From: a phage
DNA: 64,000 bases
Reading direction: 5' to 3' (one strand)
Sequence record: PZ445521.1
Shown: piece by piece, positions 6,439 through 50,718 of the stretch
How the letters are laid out: every line of letters begins with the position of its first letter
How positions within the stretch are numbered: position 1 is the stretch's first letter
Notes under the pieces: model-generated
Told to the model about the DNA's origin: nothing
What the model saw: the letters and a program-made list of their open reading frames with translations, nothing else
Databases searched by the model: none
Made by a program: the position numbers and the translations under genes

Positions 6439-8004
6439 ATGACTATCAAAACTAAAGCTGAACTTTTGAACAAATGGAAGCCATTACTGGAAGGTGAAGG
6501 TTTACCGGAAATTGCTAATAGCAAACAAGCGATTATCGCTAAAATCTTTGAAAACCAGGAAAAAGATTTCCAGACAGCTCCAGAATATAAAGACGAAAAA
6601 ATTGCTCAGGCATTTGGTTCTTTCTTAACAGAAGCTGAAATCGGTGGTGACCACGGTTACAATGCTACCAACATCGCTGCAGGTCAGACTTCTGGCGCAG
6701 TAACTCAGATTGGCCCAGCTGTTATGGGTATGGTACGTCGTGCTATTCCTAACCTGATTGCTTTCGATATTTGTGGTGTTCAGCCGATGAACAGCCCAAC
6801 CGGTCAGGTATTCGCACTCCGCGCGGTATATGGTAAAGATCCGATCGCTGCCGGTGCTAAAGAAGCATTCCACCCAATGTATGGTCCAGATGCAATGTTC
6901 TCTGGTCAGGGTGCTGCTAAGAAATTCCCAGCTCTGGCTGCTAGCACGCAAACTACAGTAGGTGATATCTATACTCACTTCTTCCAGGACACTGGTACTG
7001 TGTATCTGCAAGCTTCTGCTCAAGTAACAATTAGTTCTACTGCAGATGATGCAGCTAAATTAGATGCTGAAATTAAGAAACAAATGGAAGCTGGTGTACT
7101 GGTAGAAATCGCAGAAGGTATGGCTACTTCTATCGCTGAACTTCAGGAAGGTTTCAACGGTTCTACCGATAACCCATGGAATGAAATGGGCTTCCGTATC
7201 GATAAACAAGTTATCGAAGCTAAATCTCGCCAGCTGAAAGCTGCTTACTCTATCGAATTAGCACAAGACCTCCGCGCTGTTCACGGTATGGATGCTGATG
7301 CTGAACTGTCTGGTATTCTGGCTACCGAAATCATGCTGGAAATCAACCGTGAAGTTGTTGATTGGATTAACTACTCAGCTCAGGTTGGTAAATCTGGTAT
7401 GACCCTGACTCCGGGTTCTAAAGCTGGTGTATTTGACTTCCAGGATCCGATTGATATTCGTGGTGCTCGCTGGGCGGGTGAATCCTTTAAAGCTCTGTTG
7501 TTCCAGATTGACAAAGAAGCAGTTGAAATTGCTCGTCAGACCGGTCGTGGTGAAGGTAACTTCATTATCGCTTCCCGTAACGTAGTTAACGTACTGGCTT
7601 CTGTTGATACTGGCATTTCTTATGCTGCTCAAGGTTTGGCAACCGGTTTTAATACTGATACTACTAAGTCAGTATTTGCAGGTGTTCTGGGTGGTAAATA
7701 CCGTGTATATATCGACCAGTATGCTAAACAGGATTATTTCACTGTAGGTTATAAAGGTCCGAACGAAATGGATGCTGGTATTTACTATGCTCCATATGTA
7801 GCTCTGACTCCGCTGCGTGGTTCCGATCCGAAGAACTTCCAACCAGTAATGGGATTCAAAACTCGTTACGGTATCGGTATCAACCCATTTGCAGAATCCG
7901 CTGCTCAGGCTCCGGCTTCTCGCATTCAGAGTGGTATGCCTTCTATCCTGAACAGCCTTGGTAAGAACGCTTACTTCCGCCGTGTATATGTTAAAGGTAT
8001 CTAA
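6439..8004 (+). CDS. 23: major capsid protein gp23
   Basis: 521 aa; recognised T4 gp23. Confidence 0.96.
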   Translation: MTIKTKAELLNKWKPLLEGEGLPEIANSKQAIIAKIFENQEKDFQTAPEYKDEKIAQAFGSFLTEAEIGGDHGYNATNIAAGQTSGAVTQIGPAVMGMVRRAIPNLIAFDICGVQPMNSPTGQVFALRAVYGKDPIAAGAKEAFHPMYGPDAMFSGQGAAKKFPALAASTQTTVGDIYTHFFQDTGTVYLQASAQVTISSTADDAAKLDAEIKKQMEAGVLVEIAEGMATSIAELQEGFNGSTDNPWNEMGFRIDKQVIEAKSRQLKAAYSIELAQDLRAVHGMDADAELSGILATEIMLEINREVVDWINYSAQVGKSGMTLTPGSKAGVFDFQDPIDIRGARWAGESFKALLFQIDKEAVEIARQTGRGEGNFIIASRNVVNVLASVDTGISYAAQGLATGFNTDTTKSVFAGVLGGKYRVYIDQYAKQDYFTVGYKGPNEMDAGIYYAPYVALTPLRGSDPKNFQPVMGFKTRYGIGINPFAESAAQAPASRIQSGMPSILNSLGKNAYFRRVYVKGI

Positions 8005-8017
8005 TCTTTGACGATTT

Positions 8018-8046
8018 AAGGGACCTTCGGGTCCCTTTAGTTGTTT
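8018..8046 (+). terminator. rho-independent terminator after gene 23
   Basis: hairpin aagggaccttcgggtccctt followed by T-rich tract. Confidence 0.75.
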
Positions 8047-8052
8047 TTATGG

Positions 8053-8060
8053 TATAAATA
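8053..8060 (+). promoter_or_regulatory. late promoter TATAAATA upstream of gene 24
   Basis: exact TATAAATA about 27 nt before ATG. Confidence 0.65.
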
Positions 8061-8087
8061 AATCATATAAACTGAAAGGAAAGCGCA

Positions 8088-9371
8088 ATGGCTAAAATCA
8101 ACGAACTTCTGCGCGAATCAACCACAACGAATAGCAACTCAATCGGTCGCCCAAATCTCGTTGCTTTGACTCGCGCTACCACTAAATTAATATATTCTGA
8201 CATTGTAGCAACGCAAAGAACTAATCAACCTGTTGCTGCTTTTTATGGTATCAAATACCTTAACCCAGACAATGAATTTACATTTAAAACTGGTGCTACT
8301 TACGCTGGCGAAGCTGGATATGTAGACCGAGAACAAATCACAGAATTGACAGAAGAGTCTAAATTAACTCTCAATAAAGGCGATTTATTCAAATATAATA
8401 ATATCGTTTATAAAGTATTAGAAGATACTCCATTTGCTGATATTGAAGAAAGCGATTTAGAATTAGCTCTTCAGATTGCAATTGTTCTTTTAAAGGTTCG
8501 TCTATTTTCTGACGCAGCATCAACAAGCAAATTTGAAAGCTCTGATAGTGAAATTGCGGATGCTAGATTCCAGATTAATAAATGGCAAACCGCAGTTAAA
8601 TCTCGTAAACTTAAAACTGGCATCACAGTTGAATTAGCACAAGATTTAGAAGCAAATGGATTCGATGCTCCTAATTTCTTGGAAGATTTGCTTGCAACTG
8701 AAATGGCAGATGAAATCAATAAAGATATTCTGCAGTCTTTAATTACAGTGTCAAAACGCTATAAAGTTACAGGAATTACTGATAGTGGATTCATCGATTT
8801 GAGTTATGCATCTGCACCTGAAGCGGGTCGTTCATTATATCGAATGGTATGTGAAATGGTTTCACATATCCAAAAAGAATCAACTTATACAGCAACATTT
8901 TGTGTAGCTTCAGCTCGTGCTGCTGCGATTCTTGCTGCATCAGGTTGGTTAAAACATAAACCGGAAGATGATAAATATCTTTCACAAAATGCCTACGGGT
9001 TCTTAGCTAATGGTTTACCGCTTTATTGCGATACTAACAGCCCATTAGATTATGTAATCGTTGGTGTAGTAGAAAATATCGGTGAAAAAGAAATTGTTGG
9101 ATCAATTTTCTATGCTCCGTATACAGAAGGTCTCGACTTAGATGACCCTGAACATGTAGGTGCATTTAAAGTTGTTGTTGATCCAGAAAGCTTACAGCCG
9201 TCTATCGGTTTATTAGTTAGATATGCTTTATCAGCAAATCCTTATACCGTAGCAAAAGATGAAAAAGAAGCAAGAATAATTGACGGTGGAGACATGGATA
9301 AAATGGCTGGTCGTTCAGATTTGTCTGTTTTATTAGGTGTTAAATTACCAAAAATTATTATTGATGAATAA
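8088..9371 (+). CDS. 24: capsid vertex protein gp24
   Basis: 427 aa; gp23 paralog; synteny. Confidence 0.93.
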   Translation: MAKINELLRESTTTNSNSIGRPNLVALTRATTKLIYSDIVATQRTNQPVAAFYGIKYLNPDNEFTFKTGATYAGEAGYVDREQITELTEESKLTLNKGDLFKYNNIVYKVLEDTPFADIEESDLELALQIAIVLLKVRLFSDAASTSKFESSDSEIADARFQINKWQTAVKSRKLKTGITVELAQDLEANGFDAPNFLEDLLATEMADEINKDILQSLITVSKRYKVTGITDSGFIDLSYASAPEAGRSLYRMVCEMVSHIQKESTYTATFCVASARAAAILAASGWLKHKPEDDKYLSQNAYGFLANGLPLYCDTNSPLDYVIVGVVENIGEKEIVGSIFYAPYTEGLDLDDPEHVGAFKVVVDPESLQPSIGLLVRYALSANPYTVAKDEKEARIIDGGDMDKMAGRSDLSVLLGVKLPKIIIDE

Positions 9372-12124: not shown

Positions 12125-12805
12125 TTATTTTAATGTTACGAAAGAAGAATTGCGTGTTTCACGAATTAAAACTGATCCGTCGCGGTTAATGTAATAAATT
12201 AAGCTAAATAAAGTTTGGTGTGCTGACGCATGTTCAAAACTAGTTGGGTGAGATTTCCAATCCGGAGTTTCAGCAATCCATTGATAAATCCACCAAGGAA
12301 CAGTGCAGAATCCTGGATTTTTTCCAATCAACTGAAGATTCGGACTAAAGTTTTCCGGAAGAGTAAATACAGACGGCTTTTCAGATTCAATAATCTCAAC
12401 TACAGCCTGTTCAAATTTTTCTTCAACAAAAGGAGTATCTTCAATCAAAACATCGGTATTTTCAGGAATTTTATCCTTTTCTACTACTTCAATTTTAATG
12501 TCAGATTTAACCGGAGAATCAATCAGAAGTGCTGCTTCTGGATTGACTTCTTCATCGTCATATTTTAATCCCTCTGCGGCATCAGCAGCATCAATTAAGT
12601 CTTTAATAGATAACCCATCAGTCTCTGGCATAGGTTCACTAGCAAGCTTCTGGAGGGCTTCTTCAATATCAACAACGATATTATCAAAAGATTTATTCTT
12701 TTTGACCTTTATACCAAACTGTTCAGCATATTCAGCTAATTTAGCTTTAGCTTCTTTATTATCATCAAGAGCCTTCAGCTCTGCAATATAATCTTTATCT
12801 ATCAT
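12125..12805 (-). CDS. inh: inhibitor of prohead protease Inh
   Basis: 226 aa; synteny after hoc. Confidence 0.8.
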   Translation of the reverse strand: MIDKDYIAELKALDDNKEAKAKLAEYAEQFGIKVKKNKSFDNIVVDIEEALQKLASEPMPETDGLSIKDLIDAADAAEGLKYDDEEVNPEAALLIDSPVKSDIKIEVVEKDKIPENTDVLIEDTPFVEEKFEQAVVEIIESEKPSVFTLPENFSPNLQLIGKNPGFCTVPWWIYQWIAETPDWKSHPTSFEHASAHQTLFSLIYYINRDGSVLIRETRNSSFVTLK

Positions 12806-12818
12806 AATATTTCCTCAG

Positions 12819-12826
12819 TATAAATA
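12819..12826 (+). promoter_or_regulatory. late promoter TATAAATA upstream of uvsW
   Basis: exact TATAAATA about 29 nt before ATG. Confidence 0.6.
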
Positions 12827-12855
12827 TAGATATATTTATTACATGGTATTTAGAC

Positions 12856-14367
12856 ATGACTGACATTAAAGTACATTTTTATGATTTTAGTCACGTGAGA
12901 ATTGATTGTGAAGAAAGTACATTTCATGAACTCCGTGATTTCTTTAGCTTTGAAGCTGATGGGTATCGTTTTAATCCGAAATACAAATATGGCCACTGGG
13001 ATGGACGAATCCGTCTTTTAGATTATAATCGTCTTCTTCCATTCGGCTTAGTCGGGCAAATTAAAAAGTTCTGTGATAACTTTGGCTATAAAGCCTGGAT
13101 TGACCCGCAAATTAACGAAAAAGAAGAATTATCAAGAAAAGATTTTGATGAATGGCTTTCTAAATTAGAAATCTATTCAGGAAATAAAAGAATTGAACCA
13201 CACTGGTATCAAAAAGATGCAGTGTTCGAAGGATTAGTTAATCGTCGTAGAATTCTTAATCTTCCAACATCTGCAGGTAAATCTTTAATTCAAGCTTTGC
13301 TTGCGCGATATTATTTGGAAAATTATGAAGGTAAAATTCTTATCATTGTTCCAACAACTGCTCTGACAACTCAAATGGCTGATGACTTCGTTGACTATCG
13401 TTTATTCAGTCATGCAATGATAAAGAAAATTGGCGGCGGAGCATCAAAAGATGATAAATATAAAAATGATGCACCAGTCGTTGTTGGTACATGGCAAACT
13501 GTAGTAAAACAACCAAAAGAATGGTTCTCACAGTTTGGAATGATGATGAATGATGAATGTCATCTTGCTACAGGAAAAAGTATTTCATCTATCATATCAG
13601 GATTAAATAACTGCATGTTCAAATTTGGTCTATCTGGTTCGTTACGTGATGGCAAAGCCAATATCATGCAGTATGTTGGAATGTTTGGTGAAATATTTAA
13701 ACCAGTAACGACTTCTAAATTAATGGAAGATGGACAAGTAACTGAGCTAAAAATTAATAGTATTTTTCTTCGCTATCCCGATGAGTTCACTACTAAATTA
13801 AAGGGAAAAACTTATCAAGAAGAAATAAAAATTATTACGGGGCTTAGTAAAAGAAATAAATGGATCGCTAAATTAGCTATTAAGCTTGCGCAAAAAGATG
13901 AAAACGCTTTTGTCATGTTTAAACACGTATCGCATGGTAAAGCTATTTTCGATTTAATTAAAAATGAATACGATAAAGTTTATTACGTATCAGGGGAAGT
14001 TGATACCGAAACCCGCAATATAATGAAAACCTTAGCTGAAAATGGTAAAGGAATAATTATAGTAGCTAGTTATGGTGTATTTTCTACTGGTATTTCAGTT
14101 AAAAATCTGCATCACGTTGTTTTAGCGCATGGTGTTAAATCAAAAATCATTGTATTACAAACAATCGGTCGTGTATTACGTAAGCATGGTTCTAAGACAA
14201 TAGCAACCGTCTGGGACCTCATCGATGATTGTGGTGTTAAGCCAAAATCTGCTAATACGAAAAAGAAATACGTTCATTTGAACTATCTTTTAAAACACGG
14301 CATTGATCGTATTCAGCGCTACGCAGATGAAAAATTTAATTACGTAATGAAAACAGTTAATTTATAA
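12856..14367 (+). CDS. uvsW: UvsW SF2 DNA/RNA helicase
   Basis: 503 aa; Walker A PTSAGKS and DExH-like DECH motif. Confidence 0.92.
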   Translation: MTDIKVHFYDFSHVRIDCEESTFHELRDFFSFEADGYRFNPKYKYGHWDGRIRLLDYNRLLPFGLVGQIKKFCDNFGYKAWIDPQINEKEELSRKDFDEWLSKLEIYSGNKRIEPHWYQKDAVFEGLVNRRRILNLPTSAGKSLIQALLARYYLENYEGKILIIVPTTALTTQMADDFVDYRLFSHAMIKKIGGGASKDDKYKNDAPVVVGTWQTVVKQPKEWFSQFGMMMNDECHLATGKSISSIISGLNNCMFKFGLSGSLRDGKANIMQYVGMFGEIFKPVTTSKLMEDGQVTELKINSIFLRYPDEFTTKLKGKTYQEEIKIITGLSKRNKWIAKLAIKLAQKDENAFVMFKHVSHGKAIFDLIKNEYDKVYYVSGEVDTETRNIMKTLAENGKGIIIVASYGVFSTGISVKNLHHVVLAHGVKSKIIVLQTIGRVLRKHGSKTIATVWDLIDDCGVKPKSANTKKKYVHLNYLLKHGIDRIQRYADEKFNYVMKTVNL

Positions 14368-23220: not shown

Positions 23221-23274
23221 CCTCATGTTATGTCAGTAAGACTACTATAACACAACACGAGGGACTTGTAAACT
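23221..23274 (-). promoter_or_regulatory. T4-type early promoter plus leader, copy 1 of a 54-nt repeat
   Basis: minus strand GTTTAC, 18-nt spacer, TATAGT, then GAGG RBS; 53/54 identical to 38623-38676. Confidence 0.7.
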
Positions 23275-25330
23275 ACATCTTGAACTTTTTAGACATTCCG
23301 TTGATGTTAACCAAAGAAGCCAAGATTTGAGAAACTTCGTTTTCCTCTTCTTTTGATTCTTCTACAAGGAATTGATTAAATCCAGCCATTGGACGAACTT
23401 CACCAGTTTCCATTAAATGGTCGCCATCATATACTGATTCTTCTAATTGTTCAGAAGGAGGAACGATTGTACCTTCGATTAGATACTTGTTATAAGCAGT
23501 TTCTTTCATAAAGTACGTACTTACTTTATTAATCTTCAGTAAAATTCCACGCGGTAGAATAACTTCAGCTTCTGATGGAAATCCTGATAAATGACCTGGA
23601 ACGATAACTTTGATTCGCTCAGCTCCTTTAATTACCATACCCACGCTAGTTTCAGCATCTTCATTGGCATATGTAGAATGACTACCCATATGCATTAAAT
23701 CTTCTGCATCAACGGAACCTTCTCCTTCGCCAGAAAATACTGCGCCGGAATCATCTAGAGCCATATAGTTTTTACCATGCTCACCGAAGATATTTGGTTT
23801 AAGTGATGTCGATACGAAGTTCTTGAAATAGAACATTTTGTTTTCAATGTTATGACGCAAAGTTTTAAAGGTAACTTCTTGTCCACGGTAAAGTGTAGTT
23901 CCTGGAGGAAGAACTGATCCTTTGGCAAAGGCAGAATCTAACGTCTCGATGTGCTTAATAGCTCTTTCCATGTATTCTTCACGGGTAGAATCTGGTTTAC
24001 CCAAAAGGAACGAGTTCATTTCAACATATGAATCTGCACAATAATCTTCAATTACATCAGATTCAGCCTGAGTCAGTCCTTTTGGAGTTACTTCGGTGCT
24101 TGCGTATTCATATGCCTGAGCAGCAGATTCATTAATCAATTTATAAATGCCATTCATTACAAATTGAATAATAGCTGTCTTTTCATCTGATGCAGCTTTA
24201 GAACCTTTAACTAAATCATTGATAATTTTCTTAATAACATCAAAGCTATTAGAAATATTAATGTCAGCAAGATCGCTTAAAATTTTATCAGTTTTATAAT
24301 CAAAGAATTCTTTATTCTTTAAATATTCTTGAGAACCTTGATATGTTATATCGCTCTGCAGCTTGATAGATGGATCGCGTAAACGTGCATGGGCTAATGC
24401 AATATGATTTCGGAAACTTTCTAGTTCATAATCATTAGATTTAAAACGAGAAGCACTTCTCATACCACCGATAGCTCCTTTGCTGAAGTTTGAACCAATC
24501 TGGATAACGCCAGAGTTCATTGGTCCTTCTGCTTTGTATACCGGAACTTTAGATTCAAACTCTTGATATTTCTTGGCAGCGAAGCTATCGCCTTGAAGTG
24601 AAGCATCGACAGTAGAATATTGAGCTTGTGCTGCTAATCGACGACTAATTTTAGTTTTTTGAATAACCGCTTGATCAGTACGTTTATCATTTTCCAAAGC
24701 AATAGAAGCAGCAACTGCGACAGCTTTAGGAACAGCATTACCTGTTTTAACGTCTACATAAACATCACCGACCTTTGATTCAACTTTTGTGAATAGCTCT
24801 GTTGAAATAGGAGGTACACCTGGAATGTCTTCTAAATTGGCATTTTTACGGTAAACCATAATATATGCATACTTTTTATCATAGTCCCAGATTTCCTTTA
24901 AAAGAACATATCGACCTGCTCCTTTAGTACGCACTAAACGGTCAGCAATAACTTGCATTTGACGAGCAGCGCCATTTGTTTTACTCTTTAGTACGCGGAA
25001 TAGGCATGCGTCAATTTTATACTGCTTCATTGTTTGAAGAGCAGTATCAAAAACAGCGTTAATGACGCCAATTGGATTTCCACCCAAGTTTTTAAGCTTA
25101 ACCAGCGATAATTTCTCGTTGACACCTATCATTACGATATGCATCATTTTATCGCCTGGCTTAACGTTTTTATTTGTATCACCACCTGAGGTGTATGTAC
25201 AAAATCTAAATCCAGGAAGCACGCTTTCTTCACCGGCTTGAATAGCAAAAATTTGTGGTATTTTATGCTTAGGATTTAAGTTAACAACCGGCGCCGAAGC
25301 GCCGTCAAATAATTCTGTAATAAGTTCCAT
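23273..25330 (-). CDS. Alt-family ADP-ribosyltransferase paralog (copy A)
   Basis: 685 aa; N-terminal about 220 aa highly similar to copy B; ART-like YRGQ, FVSTSL and SEAEVILP motifs. Confidence 0.85.
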   Translation of the reverse strand: MELITELFDGASAPVVNLNPKHKIPQIFAIQAGEESVLPGFRFCTYTSGGDTNKNVKPGDKMMHIVMIGVNEKLSLVKLKNLGGNPIGVINAVFDTALQTMKQYKIDACLFRVLKSKTNGAARQMQVIADRLVRTKGAGRYVLLKEIWDYDKKYAYIMVYRKNANLEDIPGVPPISTELFTKVESKVGDVYVDVKTGNAVPKAVAVAASIALENDKRTDQAVIQKTKISRRLAAQAQYSTVDASLQGDSFAAKKYQEFESKVPVYKAEGPMNSGVIQIGSNFSKGAIGGMRSASRFKSNDYELESFRNHIALAHARLRDPSIKLQSDITYQGSQEYLKNKEFFDYKTDKILSDLADINISNSFDVIKKIINDLVKGSKAASDEKTAIIQFVMNGIYKLINESAAQAYEYASTEVTPKGLTQAESDVIEDYCADSYVEMNSFLLGKPDSTREEYMERAIKHIETLDSAFAKGSVLPPGTTLYRGQEVTFKTLRHNIENKMFYFKNFVSTSLKPNIFGEHGKNYMALDDSGAVFSGEGEGSVDAEDLMHMGSHSTYANEDAETSVGMVIKGAERIKVIVPGHLSGFPSEAEVILPRGILLKINKVSTYFMKETAYNKYLIEGTIVPPSEQLEESVYDGDHLMETGEVRPMAGFNQFLVEESKEEENEVSQILASLVNINGMSKKFKM

Positions 25331-25333
25331 GAT

Positions 25334-27430
25334 TTATCCTTGAACGAACTTGTAAGGCATGTTTGTAATATCTATGCAAGACGCAATAATTCCAAGAGAT
25401 GATTCTACTTTCTGTTTAACGTTTGATGAAACAAATGATGCAAAGTCAACTCTGTCTTCTATTTCAATATCACCTGTCATTGCAACCAATTCACCAGTTT
25501 CCATTAAATGGTCTCCATCATAGATTACCGATTCGGTGAGCTCTTCCGTGGTCATAACTTCAGCTTGAATGAGTTTTGTATTATTAGATGTTGTTCCGTC
25601 ATTATTAGAAGCATCAGTTATTTTATTAACTTTGACCATCAATCCACGCGGTAGAATAACTTCAGCTTCTGTTGCTATTCCGAGACTTCCTGGATATACA
25701 ACATTAACTTTATGAGCTCCATCAATTGCCCATCCTATTTGAACTTTAACGTATTCAGGATTTTCTTTATACGCTCTTATTTCGTTTGGATTAATAGTTA
25801 TTCCTTCTTCATTTTTATCAACTGTTAATTCATTGCGAGCTTCTGGTTCTAAAAGACCAATACCAGCATGTGTAATTCCAAAACGTCCAAAAATGATAGG
25901 AGTTAAAGAAGTAGATACAAAATTTCTGAAGTAGAACACTTTATTTTTAACTAACGCTTCATATATAGGAGCAGTCATACTTTGAGCACGATAAACTGTA
26001 ATGCCTTCTGGTATACGGTCACCATTTTCAAAAGCTGAATCTAAGTTATTTATAGCAGATTCAATTTCTTTTTCACTCATTACATCATATCGTTCTGGAT
26101 TGTAACGACCTAAAAGAAGATTATTGATGTCAGTATATCCTGAACCGCAATATTCTCTAATGCCACGCTTTTGTGATGGAGTATATTTAGAACCATCGCG
26201 GGCAATAGTAATATCAATCATTGGACCAGCACCAATTCCAGAAAAACTGTAAATCATTCGTTTGAGGAATTTAGTTTTTGCTGCGTTCCAGGAATTTTTA
26301 GTTATTTCTTCCCAGACTTCATCTGGTTGTCCTTTACGATTTTTATTATGATTAGCAAGCCATTTATCTTTATAATCTTCAAAGAATTGATTTACAGCTG
26401 CTGCGTATTTCTCTAAACATTTTATTGAAGTAGTTGGTTCATTTTTAATTGCATTAAAAATTACTTCTTTAATTTTTTCTGAAACTTCACCGACCCGACT
26501 CAGCGGAAAGAATTTATAATCATAGTGAAGTTCATCTGCCGTTCCTTCAGCAATAATTTTTGCTGCCTTTGTTTTAGAAGCTAATGAATTAATTCCAATT
26601 TTCATTTCTTCTGCTTCGGGAATTAAAGGTGCAGTAGCTGGTTTATTAAAATTAGCTGCTGTAGATTCATACTTCTGGAATAATTCACTTTCAAATCTAG
26701 AAGATTCCAATGACTGACTTTGTGCAATTGCTCTACGGGAAATTTTAACTTTAACGATTACGGCTTGGTCAGAACGTTTATCATTTTCTTGTGCAATTGA
26801 TGCTGCAATTGCTTCATTTTTAGTTACCTGATTTCCGGTATCTTTGTTGATATAAACATCACCAACCTTCGATTCAACCTTAGTAAAGAGTTCAGTACTA
26901 ATTTCTGGAACTCCTGGAATGTCTTCTAGTGATACGTTTTTACGATGTATAAGAATATATGCATACTTTTTATCGTAATCCCAGAGTTCCTTAAGAAGGA
27001 CGTATCTGCCACCTGAACGACTACGGATAAGTCTATCAGCAATAAGTTGAATTTGTCGAGCTTGACCGGCGGTTTTAGACTTAAGAATGCGTAGCATACA
27101 TGCATCAATTTTATACTGACGCATAGTTTGCATTGCAACGGTAAATACTGAATTGATGTAATTAATAGGACTCGGTCCAAGACCCTTTAATTTAGCAATT
27201 GACCCCTTTGCAGTTAATGTAAAAGGAACGATATGCATCATTTTATCGCCCATTTTTAAATCGCGATTAGTATCACCTCCAGATGTATAGGTACATAAAC
27301 GAAAGCCTGGTTGTTCAATTGCATCATCAACATGAACTGAAAAAATTTGTGGTATTTTCTTCTTTGGATTTAAGTTTGTAATCGGAAGAGTAGTATCTTC
27401 GTCAAATAATTCTGTAATGAGTTCCATCAT
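25334..27430 (-). CDS. alt: Alt ADP-ribosyltransferase (copy B, the one matching my memory of T4 Alt)
   Basis: 697-698 aa (two adjacent Met codons); YRAQ, FVSTSL and TEAEVILP motifs. Confidence 0.88.
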   Translation of the reverse strand: MMELITELFDEDTTLPITNLNPKKKIPQIFSVHVDDAIEQPGFRLCTYTSGGDTNRDLKMGDKMMHIVPFTLTAKGSIAKLKGLGPSPINYINSVFTVAMQTMRQYKIDACMLRILKSKTAGQARQIQLIADRLIRSRSGGRYVLLKELWDYDKKYAYILIHRKNVSLEDIPGVPEISTELFTKVESKVGDVYINKDTGNQVTKNEAIAASIAQENDKRSDQAVIVKVKISRRAIAQSQSLESSRFESELFQKYESTAANFNKPATAPLIPEAEEMKIGINSLASKTKAAKIIAEGTADELHYDYKFFPLSRVGEVSEKIKEVIFNAIKNEPTTSIKCLEKYAAAVNQFFEDYKDKWLANHNKNRKGQPDEVWEEITKNSWNAAKTKFLKRMIYSFSGIGAGPMIDITIARDGSKYTPSQKRGIREYCGSGYTDINNLLLGRYNPERYDVMSEKEIESAINNLDSAFENGDRIPEGITVYRAQSMTAPIYEALVKNKVFYFRNFVSTSLTPIIFGRFGITHAGIGLLEPEARNELTVDKNEEGITINPNEIRAYKENPEYVKVQIGWAIDGAHKVNVVYPGSLGIATEAEVILPRGLMVKVNKITDASNNDGTTSNNTKLIQAEVMTTEELTESVIYDGDHLMETGELVAMTGDIEIEDRVDFASFVSSNVKQKVESSLGIIASCIDITNMPYKFVQG

Positions 27431-40293: not shown

Positions 40294-41472
40294 TTAAAAG
40301 TATTTTTTAAAACTCATCATAACTTTATCATCAACATCATTATCAATCTGTGCAACAAGGTAAGATGACAGTTCTACTTCTTGTGGCGCGGATTGAACAT
40401 TATCAGAATTAAGATATTCACGAATCCAAGGATATGGATGTTTAACCGGAGCATCGGTAATCGGGCATGGAAGACCACAATGTTTCATACGAGATACAGT
40501 TAAGTAATCAATAAAGCTCCACATGCTATTTGTATTTAATCCAGGAACATCGCCATCTTTAAATAAATGAACTGCCCAATCTTTTTCTTGGCGGTTAACT
40601 TCCATGAAAATATCAACTGCTTCTTGTTCACACTCTTGAGCAATTTTAACCCATTCATCGCCATCAGTGCCAAGTTGAAGTTGACGAATAATATATTGAG
40701 TGCCTTTAAGGTGAAGCTGCTCATCACGTGCAATGAACTTCATAATCTTGGCATTACCTTCCATGATTTCCATGTTCTTATGGAAGTTAAAGGTACATGC
40801 GAAAGATACATAAAAACGAATAGCTTCCAATGCGTTGATTACATGCAAACAGAGGTAAAGAGATTTCATTAGCTCATGCTTCCAATACGTCTCATGCTCA
40901 ATAGCATCTTCAATAACGTCTTCGTCTGCATTAATTTCTTTTTGGTATTCGATATCAGCTTTAGCGTTTTCCCAATAACGAGTTTTAATCAGAACATCAT
41001 CATAATAACGTCCAATGGATTCAGCACGTTTCATAATAGCTTCATCTAATACAATTTCATCAAATACCTTCGATGGATCAGTATAAAGATTTCGCATGAT
41101 ATGTGTATATGAACGGCTGTGAATAGTTTCACTAAAAGTCCACGTAGCAACCCATGTATCAAGGCTTGGGTCTGAAATTAATGACATAAGTACAGCAGAC
41201 GGCGCACGACCCTGAATGCTATCCAAAAGTGATTGATACTTCAGGTTATTAGTAAAAATATTCTGCTGATACTGAGGAAGTTTATTAAATTGTGCAGCAT
41301 CCATCATCAAGTTTACTTCTTCAGGACGCCAGAAAAATGATAATTGCTTTTCAGTCAAATCTTCAAAAACTTTATGGCGTTGAATATCATAACGCGCAAT
41401 ACCAAGACCTGAACCGAAGAACATAGGTTCTTTTAAAACATCAACTGGATTTGTATTAAAAACTGTGCTCAT
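40294..41472 (-). CDS. nrdB: ribonucleotide reductase small subunit, uninterrupted
   Basis: 392 aa continuous ORF with ferritin-like ligands and C-terminal F. Confidence 0.92.
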   Translation of the reverse strand: MSTVFNTNPVDVLKEPMFFGSGLGIARYDIQRHKVFEDLTEKQLSFFWRPEEVNLMMDAAQFNKLPQYQQNIFTNNLKYQSLLDSIQGRAPSAVLMSLISDPSLDTWVATWTFSETIHSRSYTHIMRNLYTDPSKVFDEIVLDEAIMKRAESIGRYYDDVLIKTRYWENAKADIEYQKEINADEDVIEDAIEHETYWKHELMKSLYLCLHVINALEAIRFYVSFACTFNFHKNMEIMEGNAKIMKFIARDEQLHLKGTQYIIRQLQLGTDGDEWVKIAQECEQEAVDIFMEVNRQEKDWAVHLFKDGDVPGLNTNSMWSFIDYLTVSRMKHCGLPCPITDAPVKHPYPWIREYLNSDNVQSAPQEVELSSYLVAQIDNDVDDKVMMSFKKYF

Positions 41473-41523
41473 AAATTTTCCGCTTAGTTAATAGTTGGTG
41501 ACTCGTCCGTGAGTCAAATTATA

Positions 41524-43788
41524 TCATAATTTACAGGATGAACAATCTTCAGCTTTTGGAGTTTCTATTTCATAATCATCAGTACCAGAACCATCGCGGG
41601 TATTATGATAATAGAAATTTTTTCCGCCAAAATACCAAAAATACAAAAGGTCATCAATCATTATTGACATTGGAACCTTGCCTTTAGGGAAGATTTGGGG
41701 GTCATAGTATGTATTCGCCGAAGCTGATTGACAAACCCATTTCAGCATAATAGCTACCTGCGTAAGATAAGGTTTATTACCTTTCTTAGCTAATTTCCAT
41801 GTATAGTCGTAAAGGTCTATGTTATGCTCAATATTGGGCACGACTTGATTAAAGGAGCCCTCTTTTGATTCTTTAACAGAGACTGGTCCACGTGGAGGCT
41901 CGATACCGTTTGTACTGTTAGAAACTTGGGAAGATGACTCACATGGCATAAGTGCTGATAATGTGCTATTACGGATGCCAAAGAGCTTAAGGTCTTCCCG
42001 CAGCGACGACCAGTCACAAACGTATTTTGGAGCTGCGATTTGGTCAATCTTTTTATTGTACCAGTCGATAGGTAATTCGCCTCGAGACCAACGAGTGTCT
42101 GAATAATATTCGCAAGGTCCTTTTTCTTTGGCGAGCTTAATGGATGCTTTAATGAGTCCATACTGTAATCTCTCAAATAGTTCATGTGTTAAATCGTTAG
42201 CATCTTCATAAGAAGCAAAGTTACTTGCCAGCCAAGCTGCATAGTTAGTAACACCTACACCAAGGTTTCGACGCTTTTTAGCTTTTTCTGCTTCAGGAAC
42301 TGGATATCCTTGGTAATCCAAAAGATTATCAAGAGCACGAACTTGAACTTCTGCCAATTCATTAATTTTATCTTGGTCTTGCCAATCAAAGTTATCCAGC
42401 ACAAATGCAGATAATGTACACAATCCAATTTCAGCATCAGGACTATTCACATCATTTGTTGGAATAGCAATTTCACAGCACAAGTTGCTCTGACGAATAG
42501 GTGCCTTTTCACGAATAAATGGCGTATAGTTATTCGTATTATCAATGAACTGCACATAAATCCTTGCTGTTCCTGAGCGTTCAGTCATGAGCAATTCAAA
42601 TAGTTCACGGGCTTTAATGCGCTTTTTACGAATATTAGGGTCTTTTTCTGCTGCTTCGTATAATTCACGGAAACGGTCTTGGTCTTTAAAATAAGAATAA
42701 TAAAGCTCGCCACCCATTTCATGCGGACTGAACAAAGTAATGTAATCATTCTTTCCAAAACGTTCCATCATTAGATCATTCAGTTGAACACCATAATCCA
42801 TATGACGGATACGGTTTTCTTCTACACCTTTGTTATTTTTCAAAACGAGAAGATTTTCAACTTCCAAATGCCAAATAGGATAATAAGCAGTAGCAGCGCC
42901 GCCACGAATTCCACCCTGTGAGCATGATTTAACAGCAGTCTGAAAATGTTTCCAAAAAGGAATAACACCAGTATGGCGTACTTCACCCATGCCAATCTTA
43001 GAACCTTCGGCACGAATCATACCAACGTTAATACCAATTCCAGCGCGTTTGGAGATATATTCAACAATTGAAGCAGAAGCCTTATTGATAGACTTTAATG
43101 AATCACCTGCCTCAATAACAACGCATGAACTAAACTGCCGAGTTGGAGTACGGCAACCAGCCATAATAGGAGTTGGTAATGAAATCTGTCGAGTAGATAC
43201 TGCTTCATAAAAACGAATAACGTGTTTTAATCTATCAACAGGTTCATCTTGATGCAATGCCATTCCAATAGTCATAAATGCAAACTGTGGAGTTTCATAA
43301 ATTTGACCAGTGGTTTTATCTTTAACTAGATATTTTTCTTTTAATTGCATCGCCCCGGAATAAGTAAATTCCATATCCCGCTCATGCTTAATTTTTGATT
43401 CTAAAAATGTAATTTCTTCGGCAGAATATTTTGACAACAGTTCAGGGTCATATTTACCTTCATTTACACAGTAAGAAATATGGTCAATAAATGAACGTGG
43501 TTCATACTGCCCGTAAACATGCTTACGAAGAGCGAACATTAAACAGCGTGCAGCTACATATTGGTAATCAGGCTCTTCAACTGAAATAGAATTCGCAGCA
43601 GCCTTAATTACAATGGTTTGAATGTCATCAGTGGTCATTCCATCACGGAGATATGATTTAATATTTTCATATAATTCATAAGGATCTACAGATGTTCCTT
43701 CAGCTGCCCAAGATAAAACTTTAATAATTTTTTGCGGGTCAAAGCTCTGAGAAACACCACTACTTTTGATAACATTAATTAATTGCAT
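41524..43788 (-). CDS. nrdA: ribonucleotide reductase large subunit
   Basis: 754 aa; ATP-cone N-terminus, active-site Cys motifs, C-terminal CSSCKL. Confidence 0.95.
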   Translation of the reverse strand: MQLINVIKSSGVSQSFDPQKIIKVLSWAAEGTSVDPYELYENIKSYLRDGMTTDDIQTIVIKAAANSISVEEPDYQYVAARCLMFALRKHVYGQYEPRSFIDHISYCVNEGKYDPELLSKYSAEEITFLESKIKHERDMEFTYSGAMQLKEKYLVKDKTTGQIYETPQFAFMTIGMALHQDEPVDRLKHVIRFYEAVSTRQISLPTPIMAGCRTPTRQFSSCVVIEAGDSLKSINKASASIVEYISKRAGIGINVGMIRAEGSKIGMGEVRHTGVIPFWKHFQTAVKSCSQGGIRGGAATAYYPIWHLEVENLLVLKNNKGVEENRIRHMDYGVQLNDLMMERFGKNDYITLFSPHEMGGELYYSYFKDQDRFRELYEAAEKDPNIRKKRIKARELFELLMTERSGTARIYVQFIDNTNNYTPFIREKAPIRQSNLCCEIAIPTNDVNSPDAEIGLCTLSAFVLDNFDWQDQDKINELAEVQVRALDNLLDYQGYPVPEAEKAKKRRNLGVGVTNYAAWLASNFASYEDANDLTHELFERLQYGLIKASIKLAKEKGPCEYYSDTRWSRGELPIDWYNKKIDQIAAPKYVCDWSSLREDLKLFGIRNSTLSALMPCESSSQVSNSTNGIEPPRGPVSVKESKEGSFNQVVPNIEHNIDLYDYTWKLAKKGNKPYLTQVAIMLKWVCQSASANTYYDPQIFPKGKVPMSIMIDDLLYFWYFGGKNFYYHNTRDGSGTDDYEIETPKAEDCSSCKL

Positions 43789-48095: not shown

Positions 48096-48114
48096 GGGGA
48101 CCCTAGAGGTCCCC
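48096..48114 (-). terminator. rho-independent terminator after gene 32
   Basis: hairpin ggggaccctagaggtcccc, T tract on minus strand. Confidence 0.75.
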
Positions 48115-48136
48115 AATTAATTAGTAATATAATCTA

Positions 48137-49045
48137 TTAAAGGTCATTCAAAAGGTCATCCAGGTCCGTGTCATCAGCACTAGATGAACTACCAGAGCTT
48201 GAGCTCATAAAATCATCTTCAGTTTTTGTATTAAAGTCATCAACATTGAATGCATCCAAATCATCAGCAACTTTATCAGCTTTCTTAGCAGCAGTTGCAG
48301 CAGCACTGCCCATCACAGCAGTTCCCATAACTTGACCGAATTTAGTGCTCAGTTCTTCAAATGATTTGAATTTATCTTTAGAAGTCATTTCAGAAAGATC
48401 AACCATTTGTTCGAACAGTTCTTTCTGGAAAGATTCATCGTCAATGTTTGGAATCGCAGATTGATTCAGGAATTTAGATTCATCGTAGTTACTAAATCCA
48501 GAAACTTGTTTAACTTTCAGTACAAAGTTAGCACCTTCCCACGGACAAGTTACATCAACCGGAGTTTCACCCATTTCAACATCAACTGCAATCATTGCAT
48601 TGATTTTATCCCAGATTTTCTTACCGAAACGGTATTTAAATACTTTACCTTCGTTTTCTGGAGCAGCTGGGTCTTTTACTACAAGAATGTTAGCCCAGTA
48701 AGAAGTTTTACGTTTAACAAGACTGTACTCTTTATTGTCAGTGTTGTACAGATCATTTTTACTGATGTATTGACATACTGGGCAAGAATCGTAATCACCG
48801 TGGGTAGATGAGCATGTTTCGATATACCATTTACCATTTTTCTTGAAACCGTGATTTACAAGAAGTGCGAATGGTGCTTGTTCATCATTTTTAGACGGAA
48901 GAAAACGAATTACTGCTTGACCGTTACCCGCATTGTCGAGTTTCAGTTTCCACTCGCCTTTATCTTCAGAAGAAAAACCACCTTTATTTCCAGCCAGTTT
49001 AGCCATTTGTGCAGCGAGTTCAGCAGTAGATTTACGTTTAAACAT
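48137..49045 (-). CDS. 32: single-stranded DNA-binding protein gp32
   Basis: 302 aa; recognised gp32 with Ser/Asp-rich acidic C-terminus. Confidence 0.95.
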
Positions 49046-49095
49046 TTTTATTTCCTTTTTAATTTAATTAACAGTTGGTGCTATGACACTTTACC

Positions 49096-49728
49096 TCATA
49101 GCTGGCATAATTCGCAATACTCTGGGTCTTCGAGAGGTATCCAACCCGAGTTGAAATACTTTACCATCGATTTAGCAGTTGTATCAGTTATATTTATATT
49201 ACCTTTAACTCTTCGCCATCCAGGAGTTTTACCGTACAGATTAGAGGATAATAATAACACATAATTCTCGTAAGCAATATGAGATAATTTCCAAGACTCT
49301 ATATTAGCTCGTGATGTTTTCCAAGGTCTGAAATCGTCACGGTTCATATAATTAGCCAATCTCATATGCTCTCTAACTTCCGGGTCTTTAGCTGGGTGAG
49401 TTTCACCACTCACACCAAATCCGCCGCCAGCATATACCAGATTAAAATAGTCTGGATTATCTCTGGCATTTACTTCAAGTTGGTATTTTCGCTCTGCTTC
49501 AATAACATCCAAATCATCATCAATTTGAATTATTTTAACGCTCGGTTTTTGAAGCATTACCGCATTTAAAAATCTTTTTTGTTTACACGAACTCCAGTAT
49601 TCCTTTCCGGAAGAGTCATATATTATTCCGTTCTCAAATGAGCAATTTAATTTACTACCGATATAGTAGTATGGCGGAGTCTTATTTTTGACACGGTCTT
49701 CAAATGTAAACCAATATACTATATTCAT
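49096..49728 (-). CDS. GIY-YIG homing endonuclease, SegG-like
   Basis: 210 aa; N-terminal VYW...YYIGS; sits between 59 and 32. Confidence 0.65.
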   Translation of the reverse strand: MNIVYWFTFEDRVKNKTPPYYYIGSKLNCSFENGIIYDSSGKEYWSSCKQKRFLNAVMLQKPSVKIIQIDDDLDVIEAERKYQLEVNARDNPDYFNLVYAGGGFGVSGETHPAKDPEVREHMRLANYMNRDDFRPWKTSRANIESWKLSHIAYENYVLLLSSNLYGKTPGWRRVKGNINITDTTAKSMVKYFNSGWIPLEDPEYCELCQL

Positions 49729-49729
49729 A

Positions 49730-50383
49730 TCAATACTTGCAAGATTTCACAGTTTCAATGAAAACACTTTTAGCTTTCTGCGAATCAATATTTAAAATTT
49801 TTCTATAAGCCTTTAACTTTATAGAATAATTATTCCAGACTAAATTATCAGTCTGTTCATCATGTTTATCGATTATATTTAAAAACGAATCAAGCAAGAT
49901 AAACGTCTCAAACGAAATTATATTCGATTGAAGTAGTTTAAAAATATAACTTGATTGAACTTTTGGATTATATTCAAAAATTTCTTTAAAAGCAGAAACT
50001 TCAACTTTTTTACTAAAATAATAAATGTTGCGAATATCTTCTTCAAACTTAAATTTAATTTGCTTTAAGCGTCCGATATATTCACGATAAAACACAAGTG
50101 CATCAGCGTCAGAGATGTCGCCAATCCAAGCATCTTGGTTAGCAACCAAATTACTTATAAAGATTAAAGCAAGTTCCTTTAATTTATATTTTTCTGATAA
50201 CTTCTGAAAAAAATACTTATCCCTTCGCTTTTGATAAGCGGCATCAGACACCCGCATGCACCAATTATACTTAATAACATCATACTTTCCATTCATATGT
50301 TGTTTTATCATTAAGTATAATTTATAAACTGATTTACCATCAATGTATCTTTCACCACCAGCAGGCATGCGGAGTTTAATCAT
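49730..50383 (-). CDS. 59: helicase loader gp59
   Basis: 217 aa as T4 gp59. Confidence 0.88.
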   Translation of the reverse strand: MIKLRMPAGGERYIDGKSVYKLYLMIKQHMNGKYDVIKYNWCMRVSDAAYQKRRDKYFFQKLSEKYKLKELALIFISNLVANQDAWIGDISDADALVFYREYIGRLKQIKFKFEEDIRNIYYFSKKVEVSAFKEIFEYNPKVQSSYIFKLLQSNIISFETFILLDSFLNIIDKHDEQTDNLVWNNYSIKLKAYRKILNIDSQKAKSVFIETVKSCKY

Positions 50384-50718
50384 AGCAGAAAATCTAATGT
50401 ATTAGTTTTTTCACAACGAACAACAGAAGGACGTAAAAGATTTTCGTCAATAGCTTCCGACTGAATTTTTTCAATTATACCCGAAGGAATAAATTTAGCA
50501 AATTGAGTTTCAGGAATAGAGTTTTCTTCCAAGAATGCTGTCGTAGCTTCAAGATAACTCATTCCAAACTCTTCTACCATTTTTTCAATAATAAATCCAT
50601 TTTCTTGACGATCAAGAAGCTTTGCTATTTCATCCTTTTCTTTCTTGATTGAAAGTTCTTTTTCTGAAAGACCGGTCTCATCGACCGGGCGAATATCATT
50701 TAGAGAAAACTGTGTCAT
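50380..50718 (-). CDS. 33: late transcription co-activator gp33
   Basis: 112 aa from MTQFSLND. Confidence 0.88.
   Translation of the reverse strand: MTQFSLNDIRPVDETGLSEKELSIKKEKDEIAKLLDRQENGFIIEKMVEEFGMSYLEATTAFLEENSIPETQFAKFIPSGIIEKIQSEAIDENLLRPSVVRCEKTNTLDFLL

Follow-up and report, generated by a model that had tools for sequence, protein, structure and literature searches.

The open reading frame (ORF) at positions 49096..49728 of the window, by which we mean the whole 64,000-nucleotide stretch of phage DNA that was analyzed, is segG, a free-standing homing endonuclease gene (HEG) of T4-type phages, here in an intact and almost certainly active form that very probably spreads by homing with co-conversion of flanking sequence. 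The present analysis supplies the gene's identity, its predicted fold and conserved residues, evidence of purifying selection, the regulatory motifs embedded in the gene, and a presence/absence polymorphism whose junctions are exactly placed. Cleavage, the gene 32 target and homing with marker exclusion are taken from the literature on the T4 protein, which is 99.5% identical; we infer the activity of the window allele, which carries V57L, and DNA binding by the C-terminal domain. The gene, its family, its target, the exclusion of T2 markers, the embedded gene 32 promoters and the pseudoknot overlap are all already known from publications, and this copy is annotated in GenBank. The find consequently matters little as a discovery and serves as a calibration point, in that the gene was correctly recognized from raw sequence. 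Two descriptive points are mildly new, namely a Seg-type subgroup that is missed by the model libraries and lacks a conserved arginine, and a local mosaic at the 5′ end of gene 32.

Identity and conservation of the gene

The gene and its two neighbors are placed as follows.

49096..49728, minus strand: segG coding sequence from the ORF list, with an ATG start, 210 codons and a TGA stop; a free-standing homing endonuclease gene
48137..49045, minus strand: gene 32 (gp32, ssDNA-binding protein), downstream of segG; Pfam gp32, 1.3e-66
49730..50383, minus strand: gene 59 (gp59, helicase loader), the flanking homology arm upstream of segG; Pfam T4_Gp59_N 1e-53 and T4_Gp59_C 5e-52

The 210-residue ORF reported by the first-pass annotation was borne out, and the translation of 49096..49728 begins with MNIVYWFTFEDRVKNKTPPYYYIGSK, exactly as quoted there. 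The ORF lies between genes 59 and 32 in the orientation of both, with the flanks identified by Pfam and the T4 annotation in agreement; gp33, DsbA and RNase H are encoded farther upstream of gene 59 (Pfam E-values <=6e-27). This is also the position of segG in T4, as had been claimed. In the alignment to T4 SegG (NP_049855) that had been proposed as a check, 209 of 210 residues are identical without gaps, and the sole difference is the conservative change V57L. PHROG 7504, "homing endonuclease," matches the ORF end to end (1.9e-133). At the DNA level, the stretch from gene 32 through segG to gene 59 shares 97.6% identity with T4, in which the gene bears the annotation segG, and positions 48100..50400 of the window show 100% identity to Shigella phage JK38 (MK962755.1), in whose record the gene already appears as "homing endonuclease." On these sequence identities the ORF is orthologous to T4 segG, a known gene that was formerly called 32.1. 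The two share length, locus, the 1-nt gap after the gene 59 stop, a 3′ end that overlaps the pseudoknot of gene 32, and the embedded late-promoter motif, and differ by V57L and 11 synonymous changes.

These 11 synonymous changes against 1 nonsynonymous change correspond to a pN/pS of 0.02, and the ratio ranges from 0 to 0.25 among six segG alleles. Since the value of 0.02 holds over the whole ORF, the protein sequence itself is under selection, beyond a few DNA motifs. All family-conserved residues are intact in the window SegG, which argues against a decayed pseudogene, and a chance ORF was ruled out by the homologues and by pN/pS.

The window allele is 100% identical in DNA sequence to that of phage vB_EcoM_G2540 (MK327936.1). 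Compared with the cluster formed by T4, RB3 and PYPS2T, it shows a pS of 0.09-0.10 (about 9-10% of synonymous sites), against at most 3% within that cluster. At least two segG lineages thus appear, from these alleles, to circulate in Tequatrovirus.

The N-terminal domain and the GIY-YIG superfamily

The predicted protein divides into two domains.

49420..49728, minus strand: N-terminal catalytic domain of divergent Seg-type GIY-YIG character, about residues 1-103, with conserved Y5, Y22-I23-G24-S25-K26, Y44, S47, E79 and N96
49099..49386, minus strand: C-terminal all-helical domain, about residues 115-210, a putative DNA-binding or target-recognition module

Searches at E <=1 with the segG product found no family in Pfam and none in NCBIfam, and phmmer against PDB sequences gave chance matches only. 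Together with a longer spacing of the motif tyrosines than in I-TevI (17 versus 11 residues) and the lack of a conserved arginine, these results speak for a reading in which the IVY...YIG pattern is due to chance, the N-terminal domain belongs to no GIY-YIG nuclease and the protein has some other activity. We give this reading next to no credence in view of the conservation, the predicted structure and the profile comparisons below.

Conservation was examined in a SegG family set of 29 homologues, 27 of which were aligned. Invariant in the 27 sequences are P19, Y22, I23, G24, S25, K26, C29, Y44, S47, E79, N96 and A100, and Y5 and R12 are conserved at >=90%. The AlphaFold2 model computed on this alignment is confident (mean pLDDT 90.7) and comprises an alpha/beta N-terminal domain from residue 1 to about 100, a disordered linker at 104-107 and a helical C-terminal domain. 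IVY at residues 3-5 and YIG at 22-24 fall on the first two strands of the model (2-8 and 21-26). A Foldseek search against the PDB ranked I-TevI first (TM 0.58, normalized to the target), a match that with an E-value of 1.4 is non-significant and constitutes no independent proof.

The proposed comparison with the other Seg proteins was carried out by aligning SegG with T4 SegA, SegE and SegF and with I-TevI. Exactly five positions are invariant, Y22, G24, S47, E79 and N96, and their counterparts in I-TevI are Y17, G19, S42, E75 and N90. A forced HMMER alignment of the SegG N-domain profile (14-98) to I-TevI (9-92) is colinear and nearly gapless, with 6.7 bits and an E-value of 4.5e-4 that applies to a single target. 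By hhalign, the 27-sequence family matched I-TevI with a probability of 1.7% and in the C-terminal part only.

A profile search of 1.84 billion representatives widened the family to 501 relatives of the SegG domain at E <=0.001. Among 62 diverse relatives, Y5, G24, Y44 and E79 are invariant and Y22, I23, S25, K26, S47 and N96 are conserved at >=90%. The profile of this broad family matched T4 SegA in hhalign with a probability of 88% and an E-value of 2.9e-6, across the Y-x-G-S, Glu and Asn motifs; SegA is recognized by Pfam as GIY-YIG and thereby provides a sequence bridge for the SegG family profile. Against I-TevI, the sole hhalign match of the 62-sequence profile was a NUMOD3-like stretch that is absent from SegG, and the match of the catalytic domain was non-significant. 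Curated sequence models recognize few of the relatives: none of the 62 matches PF01541 and four match PF19835 (SegE_GIY-YIG) weakly. T4 SegF likewise has no Pfam GIY-YIG match, and the absence of one for SegG is therefore taken as a gap in model coverage.

Taken together, the analysis supports assigning the SegG N-terminal domain to the GIY-YIG superfamily, within its Seg-type branch, in agreement with the GIY-YIG-like module claimed in the first-pass annotation. The motifs, with Y5 and Y22-I23-G24 conserved, lie on the first two strands of an alpha/beta fold, the metal-binding glutamate (E75 in I-TevI) corresponds to the invariant E79, the structural asparagine (N90 in I-TevI) to N96, and hhalign links the family to SegA. 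Of the catalytic Arg and Glu positions whose absence was to refute the claim, the glutamate is thus present, whereas no conserved arginine occurs at the position of I-TevI R27. That position is occupied in the SegG family by a variable residue within a predicted beta-hairpin (residues 30-37). No arginine column reaches 90% in the 62 homologues, R12 being a majority residue only and R52 not conserved, and the best-conserved basic residue is K26 (>=90%).

The missing arginine was not taken as refuting GIY-YIG membership, because a basic residue of the K26 type may reach the active site from elsewhere. In addition, SegA and SegE delete the R27 segment in the multiple alignment and yet are listed as active enzymes (PMC2988022), so that an absent arginine at the canonical position does not count as refutation. 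A tentative and rather doubtful proposal is that the SegG-type domain represents a distinct GIY-YIG variant, in which the beta-hairpin replaces the arginine-bearing helix and K26, or Y44 and S47 of a Y-x-x-S motif, takes the role of the arginine. If true, the active site would be configured differently for catalysis, in a fold that is itself well known.

Comparison with characterized enzymes shows how far SegG has diverged. The catalytic domain of I-TevI (PDB 1LN0/1MK0), the GIY-YIG archetype, has about 17% identity to SegG and belongs to an intron-encoded enzyme, whereas segG is free-standing. Helix alpha-1 of I-TevI carries R27, where the SegG model has the beta-hairpin with variable residues; the model also shows an extra short helix in the hairpin loop between the GIY and YIG strands, and the C-terminal domains are unrelated. 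T4 SegA and SegE resemble SegG in being free-standing in intergenic spacers and in sharing Y-x-(G/S)-S after YIG, the glutamate and the asparagine. However, they are only 14-15% identical to SegG, have different targets and C-terminal modules (SegA has NUMOD3) and are recognized by Pfam (PF01541 and PF19835), unlike SegG and SegF.

The relatives found with the SegG-type catalytic domain form 501 clusters at 50% identity at E <=0.001 and 180 at E <=1e-10. The domain is joined to many different C-terminal modules; NUMOD3 was present in 30 of the 62 sampled relatives and the I-TevI DNA-binding domain in two. Pfam and NCBIfam miss this large Seg-type GIY-YIG subgroup, and such genes are consequently often labelled hypothetical.

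Insertion site and probable homing

Among 504 close-relative phage records matching the 59-segG-32 junction, about 141 (~28%) have segG, and segG alone is found full-length in 142 records. Records without segG span 476 bp against 1061 bp in the window, a net difference of 585 bp. The empty site is a 99-nt spacer between genes 59 and 32 in T2, RB32, CM8, phiD1, RB51, ime09 and LH2. Alignment and computation of the junctions delimited the insert.

49106..49731, minus strand: DNA unique to segG+ genomes, 626 nt replacing 38 nt of the spacer in T2, RB32 and CM8
49730..49732, minus strand: left junction at the stop codon of gene 59, which reads TGA where segG is present and TAA in empty sites
49105..49094, minus strand: right junction, the block CCAGCTATGAGG common to empty sites, which holds the last segG codons CAG CTA TGA and lies within the gene 32 pseudoknot

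A single base separates the gene 59 TGA (49732..49730) from the segG ATG (49728..49726), with no separate upstream spacer. The gene therefore shows the features of a free-standing HEG, namely a precise empty site, a presence/absence polymorphism, a location outside any intron or intein and insertion into the intergenic spacer between conserved genes.

Homologues were also found at the 59/32 junction in other genera, in Gaprivervirus SP18 and in the Klebsiella phage UTI-K1 (Jiaodavirus). The SP18 gene has the locus and orientation of segG and encodes a protein with 40% identity over its whole length. The UTI-K1 gene (L018:1036-1698), again with the same locus and orientation, encodes an N-terminal domain 54% identical to that of SegG, but its C-terminal half is unrelated and carries a CxxC...H...C pattern. 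Comparison of the UTI-K1 and SegG sequences indicates a swap of the recognition domain at an insertion site that has itself been conserved, a modular exchange typical of such enzymes.

The T4 gene has been characterized in published work. In the review by Edgell, Gibb and Belfort, segG is a free-standing GIY-YIG endonuclease of demonstrated activity that lies between genes 32 and 59 and targets gene 32 (PMC2988022, Table 1). SegG is responsible for the exclusion of the T2 gene 32 marker in crosses of T4 with T2, and the exclusion of T2 markers by T4 has been attributed to SegG and SegF (PMC2330249). The first-pass annotation's statement that SegG cuts near gene 32 and drives marker exclusion of T2 agrees with both sources, which concern T4 SegG. 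Double-strand cleavage leaving 2-nt 3′ extensions is stated for SegA and for GIY-YIG enzymes generally (PMC2988022). Seg enzymes cleave hundreds of base pairs or more away from their own gene, and resection during repair must therefore extend as far as that gene, so that the sequence alongside is co-converted (PMC2988022).

Applied to the window, these steps would run as follows. segG would be transcribed together with gene 59, and its product would carry a Seg-type GIY-YIG nuclease at the N terminus, joined by a flexible linker to a putative helical DNA-binding domain at the C terminus. During mixed infection with a segG-minus relative, SegG would make a double-strand break in the gene 32 of that relative, away from the insertion site. 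Resection and recombinational repair off the segG+ genome would then transfer segG to the recipient along with the neighboring portion of gene 32. Such intronless homing with co-conversion would show up in crosses as the exclusion of the gene 32 marker of the other phage. Finally, the insert replaced the original 59-32 spacer and would now hold control elements of gene 32, which is essential, so that its loss should be hindered.

The reported exclusion of T2 markers also accords with an active nuclease that persists mainly through competition between phages, cutting co-infecting relatives and favoring the gene 32 region of its carrier, and that is not purely selfish. The occupation of the same site by homologues in several genera and the strong purifying selection on the protein fit this account as well. 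However, it invokes the same molecular steps as homing and differs only in the beneficiary, and the patchy distribution (~28%) with clean empty sites fits a spreading or a lost element no less than a beneficial one. We consider competition as the main reason for persistence highly unlikely and retain homing with co-conversion as the preferred reading.

Gene 32 control elements and mosaicism

Three control elements of gene 32, two of them candidate promoters, overlap segG.

49191..49198, minus strand: late-promoter consensus TATAAATA, a candidate gene 32 late promoter that lies 153 nt before the gene 32 ATG, within segG codons 176-181
49271..49278, minus strand: MotA-box-like ATTGCTTA, a candidate gene 32 middle promoter by motif only, inside segG at -233
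49080..49107, minus strand: gene 32 mRNA pseudoknot region, the translational operator, whose 5′ strands come from the last segG codons UGC CAG CUA UGA

The late-promoter consensus TATAAATA is present in all six segG+ loci examined, and empty sites have their own copy at -91. The octamer ATTGCTTA was found in five of the six segG+ loci and in all seven empty sites, where it lies at -100. The 38 nt of the empty site that were displaced hold both ATTGCTTA and TATAAATA, and the insert has its own copies inside segG. This displacement and re-supply of motifs agrees with the published location of the gene 32 middle and late promoters inside segG, an arrangement that favors retention of segG (PMC2988022). 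The curated T4 records contain no promoter features at segG and gene 32, and the promoter positions given here rest on the motifs and on that review. The transcript is processed by RNase E (PMC2988022).

The pseudoknot of the gene 32 mRNA is known to overlap, in its 5′ part, the end of ORF 32.1/segG (PMC535899); Rfam has no family for this region. Read from the sequences, stem 1 is UGACC/GGUCA in the T2 type and in empty sites versus UGCC/GGUA in the T4 type and in occupied sites. The two types differ, among other changes, by one double change from G-C to U-A, and pairing has therefore been kept although the 5′ strand is now coding sequence. An A/T-rich repeat of the TTAAA type in the operator (49057..49079 of the window, minus strand) varies from about two to five copies among segG+ phages, with most in Ptacy1496. 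The short form of this repeat is found in all seven empty-site phages and in the window, which in this respect departs from the other five segG+ phages compared.

Homing endonuclease genes often decay once they are fixed. With the late-promoter consensus, the MotA-like box and the 5′ strands of the pseudoknot all inside the ORF, segG might be an inactive remnant that is kept only as a regulatory cassette supplying the gene 32 promoters and part of the translational operator. The published argument that embedded promoters favor retention (PMC2988022) and the lack of a canonical arginine point the same way. Against this, pN/pS is 0.02 across the whole ORF (1 nonsynonymous change beside 11 synonymous ones), every family-invariant residue is preserved, the T4 protein, which is 99.5% identical, is reported to be active and mobile (PMC2988022, PMC2330249), and the gene, present in about 28% of relatives, is far from fixed. 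An inactive remnant is accordingly very improbable, and an intact, almost certainly active HEG that also carries gene 32 control elements is the reading we favor.

The sequence of gene 32 was compared among 13 genomes, a small sample consisting of six segG+ phages (the window, T4, RB3, PYPS2T, Ptacy1496 and SHFML-26) and seven segG- phages. Nucleotides 230/231, 295 and 322 of gene 32, within 48816..48724 on the minus strand of the window, co-segregate with segG in these 13 genomes with the exceptions of LH2 and phiD1, and the window carries the segG+ alleles at these positions. At nucleotides 52-66 (48980..48994, minus strand), the window is of the segG- type and departs in this from the remaining five segG+ phages. 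The differences in this stretch are SNPs at 52, 53 and 57 together with an indel of GGT at 64-66, which gives a gp32 of 302 residues in the window. Unlike T4, the window is therefore of the segG-minus type in the operator and over the initial 66 nt of gene 32. LH2, which lacks segG, shows the converse pattern to the window. This patchwork in the leader and 5′ end of gene 32 fits repeated gene conversion around the homing target among the 13 genomes, and a mixture of segG+ and segG- types at this point is the local mosaic expected around the target of a homing endonuclease.

The first-pass annotation extended such traffic to the genome as a whole, pointing to intronless td and nrdB and to fiber genes of T2/T6 type. 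The observations hold, as td and nrdB each form one continuous ORF (of 286 aa and 392 aa, respectively) with a near-complete Pfam match, and gp38, of 278 aa, is a T2/T6-type adhesin (PF05268). The conclusion of a mosaic genome shaped by homing endonucleases is reasonable but generic, and segG is the only match in the window among the T4 HEGs tested. A tblastn search of the window with T4 SegA, SegE, SegF, I-TevI, I-TevIII and MobE gave no match, which rules out a second HEG elsewhere in the window for these six.

Three spacers that house further HEGs in T4 are short in the window. The spacer between nrdA and nrdB (41472..41524, 51 nt) is too short for mobE/nrdB.1, which is found there in T4. 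With gene names inferred from ORF size and order, the spacer between genes 23 and 24 (8004..8088, 83 nt) is too short for segD and that between inh and uvsW (12805..12856, 50 nt) is too short for segE. In addition, two adjacent head-to-tail ORFs of 685 and 698 aa (23273..25330 and 25334..27430, minus strand) lie where T4 has a single alt gene, and may represent a tandem duplication or a pair of paralogues.
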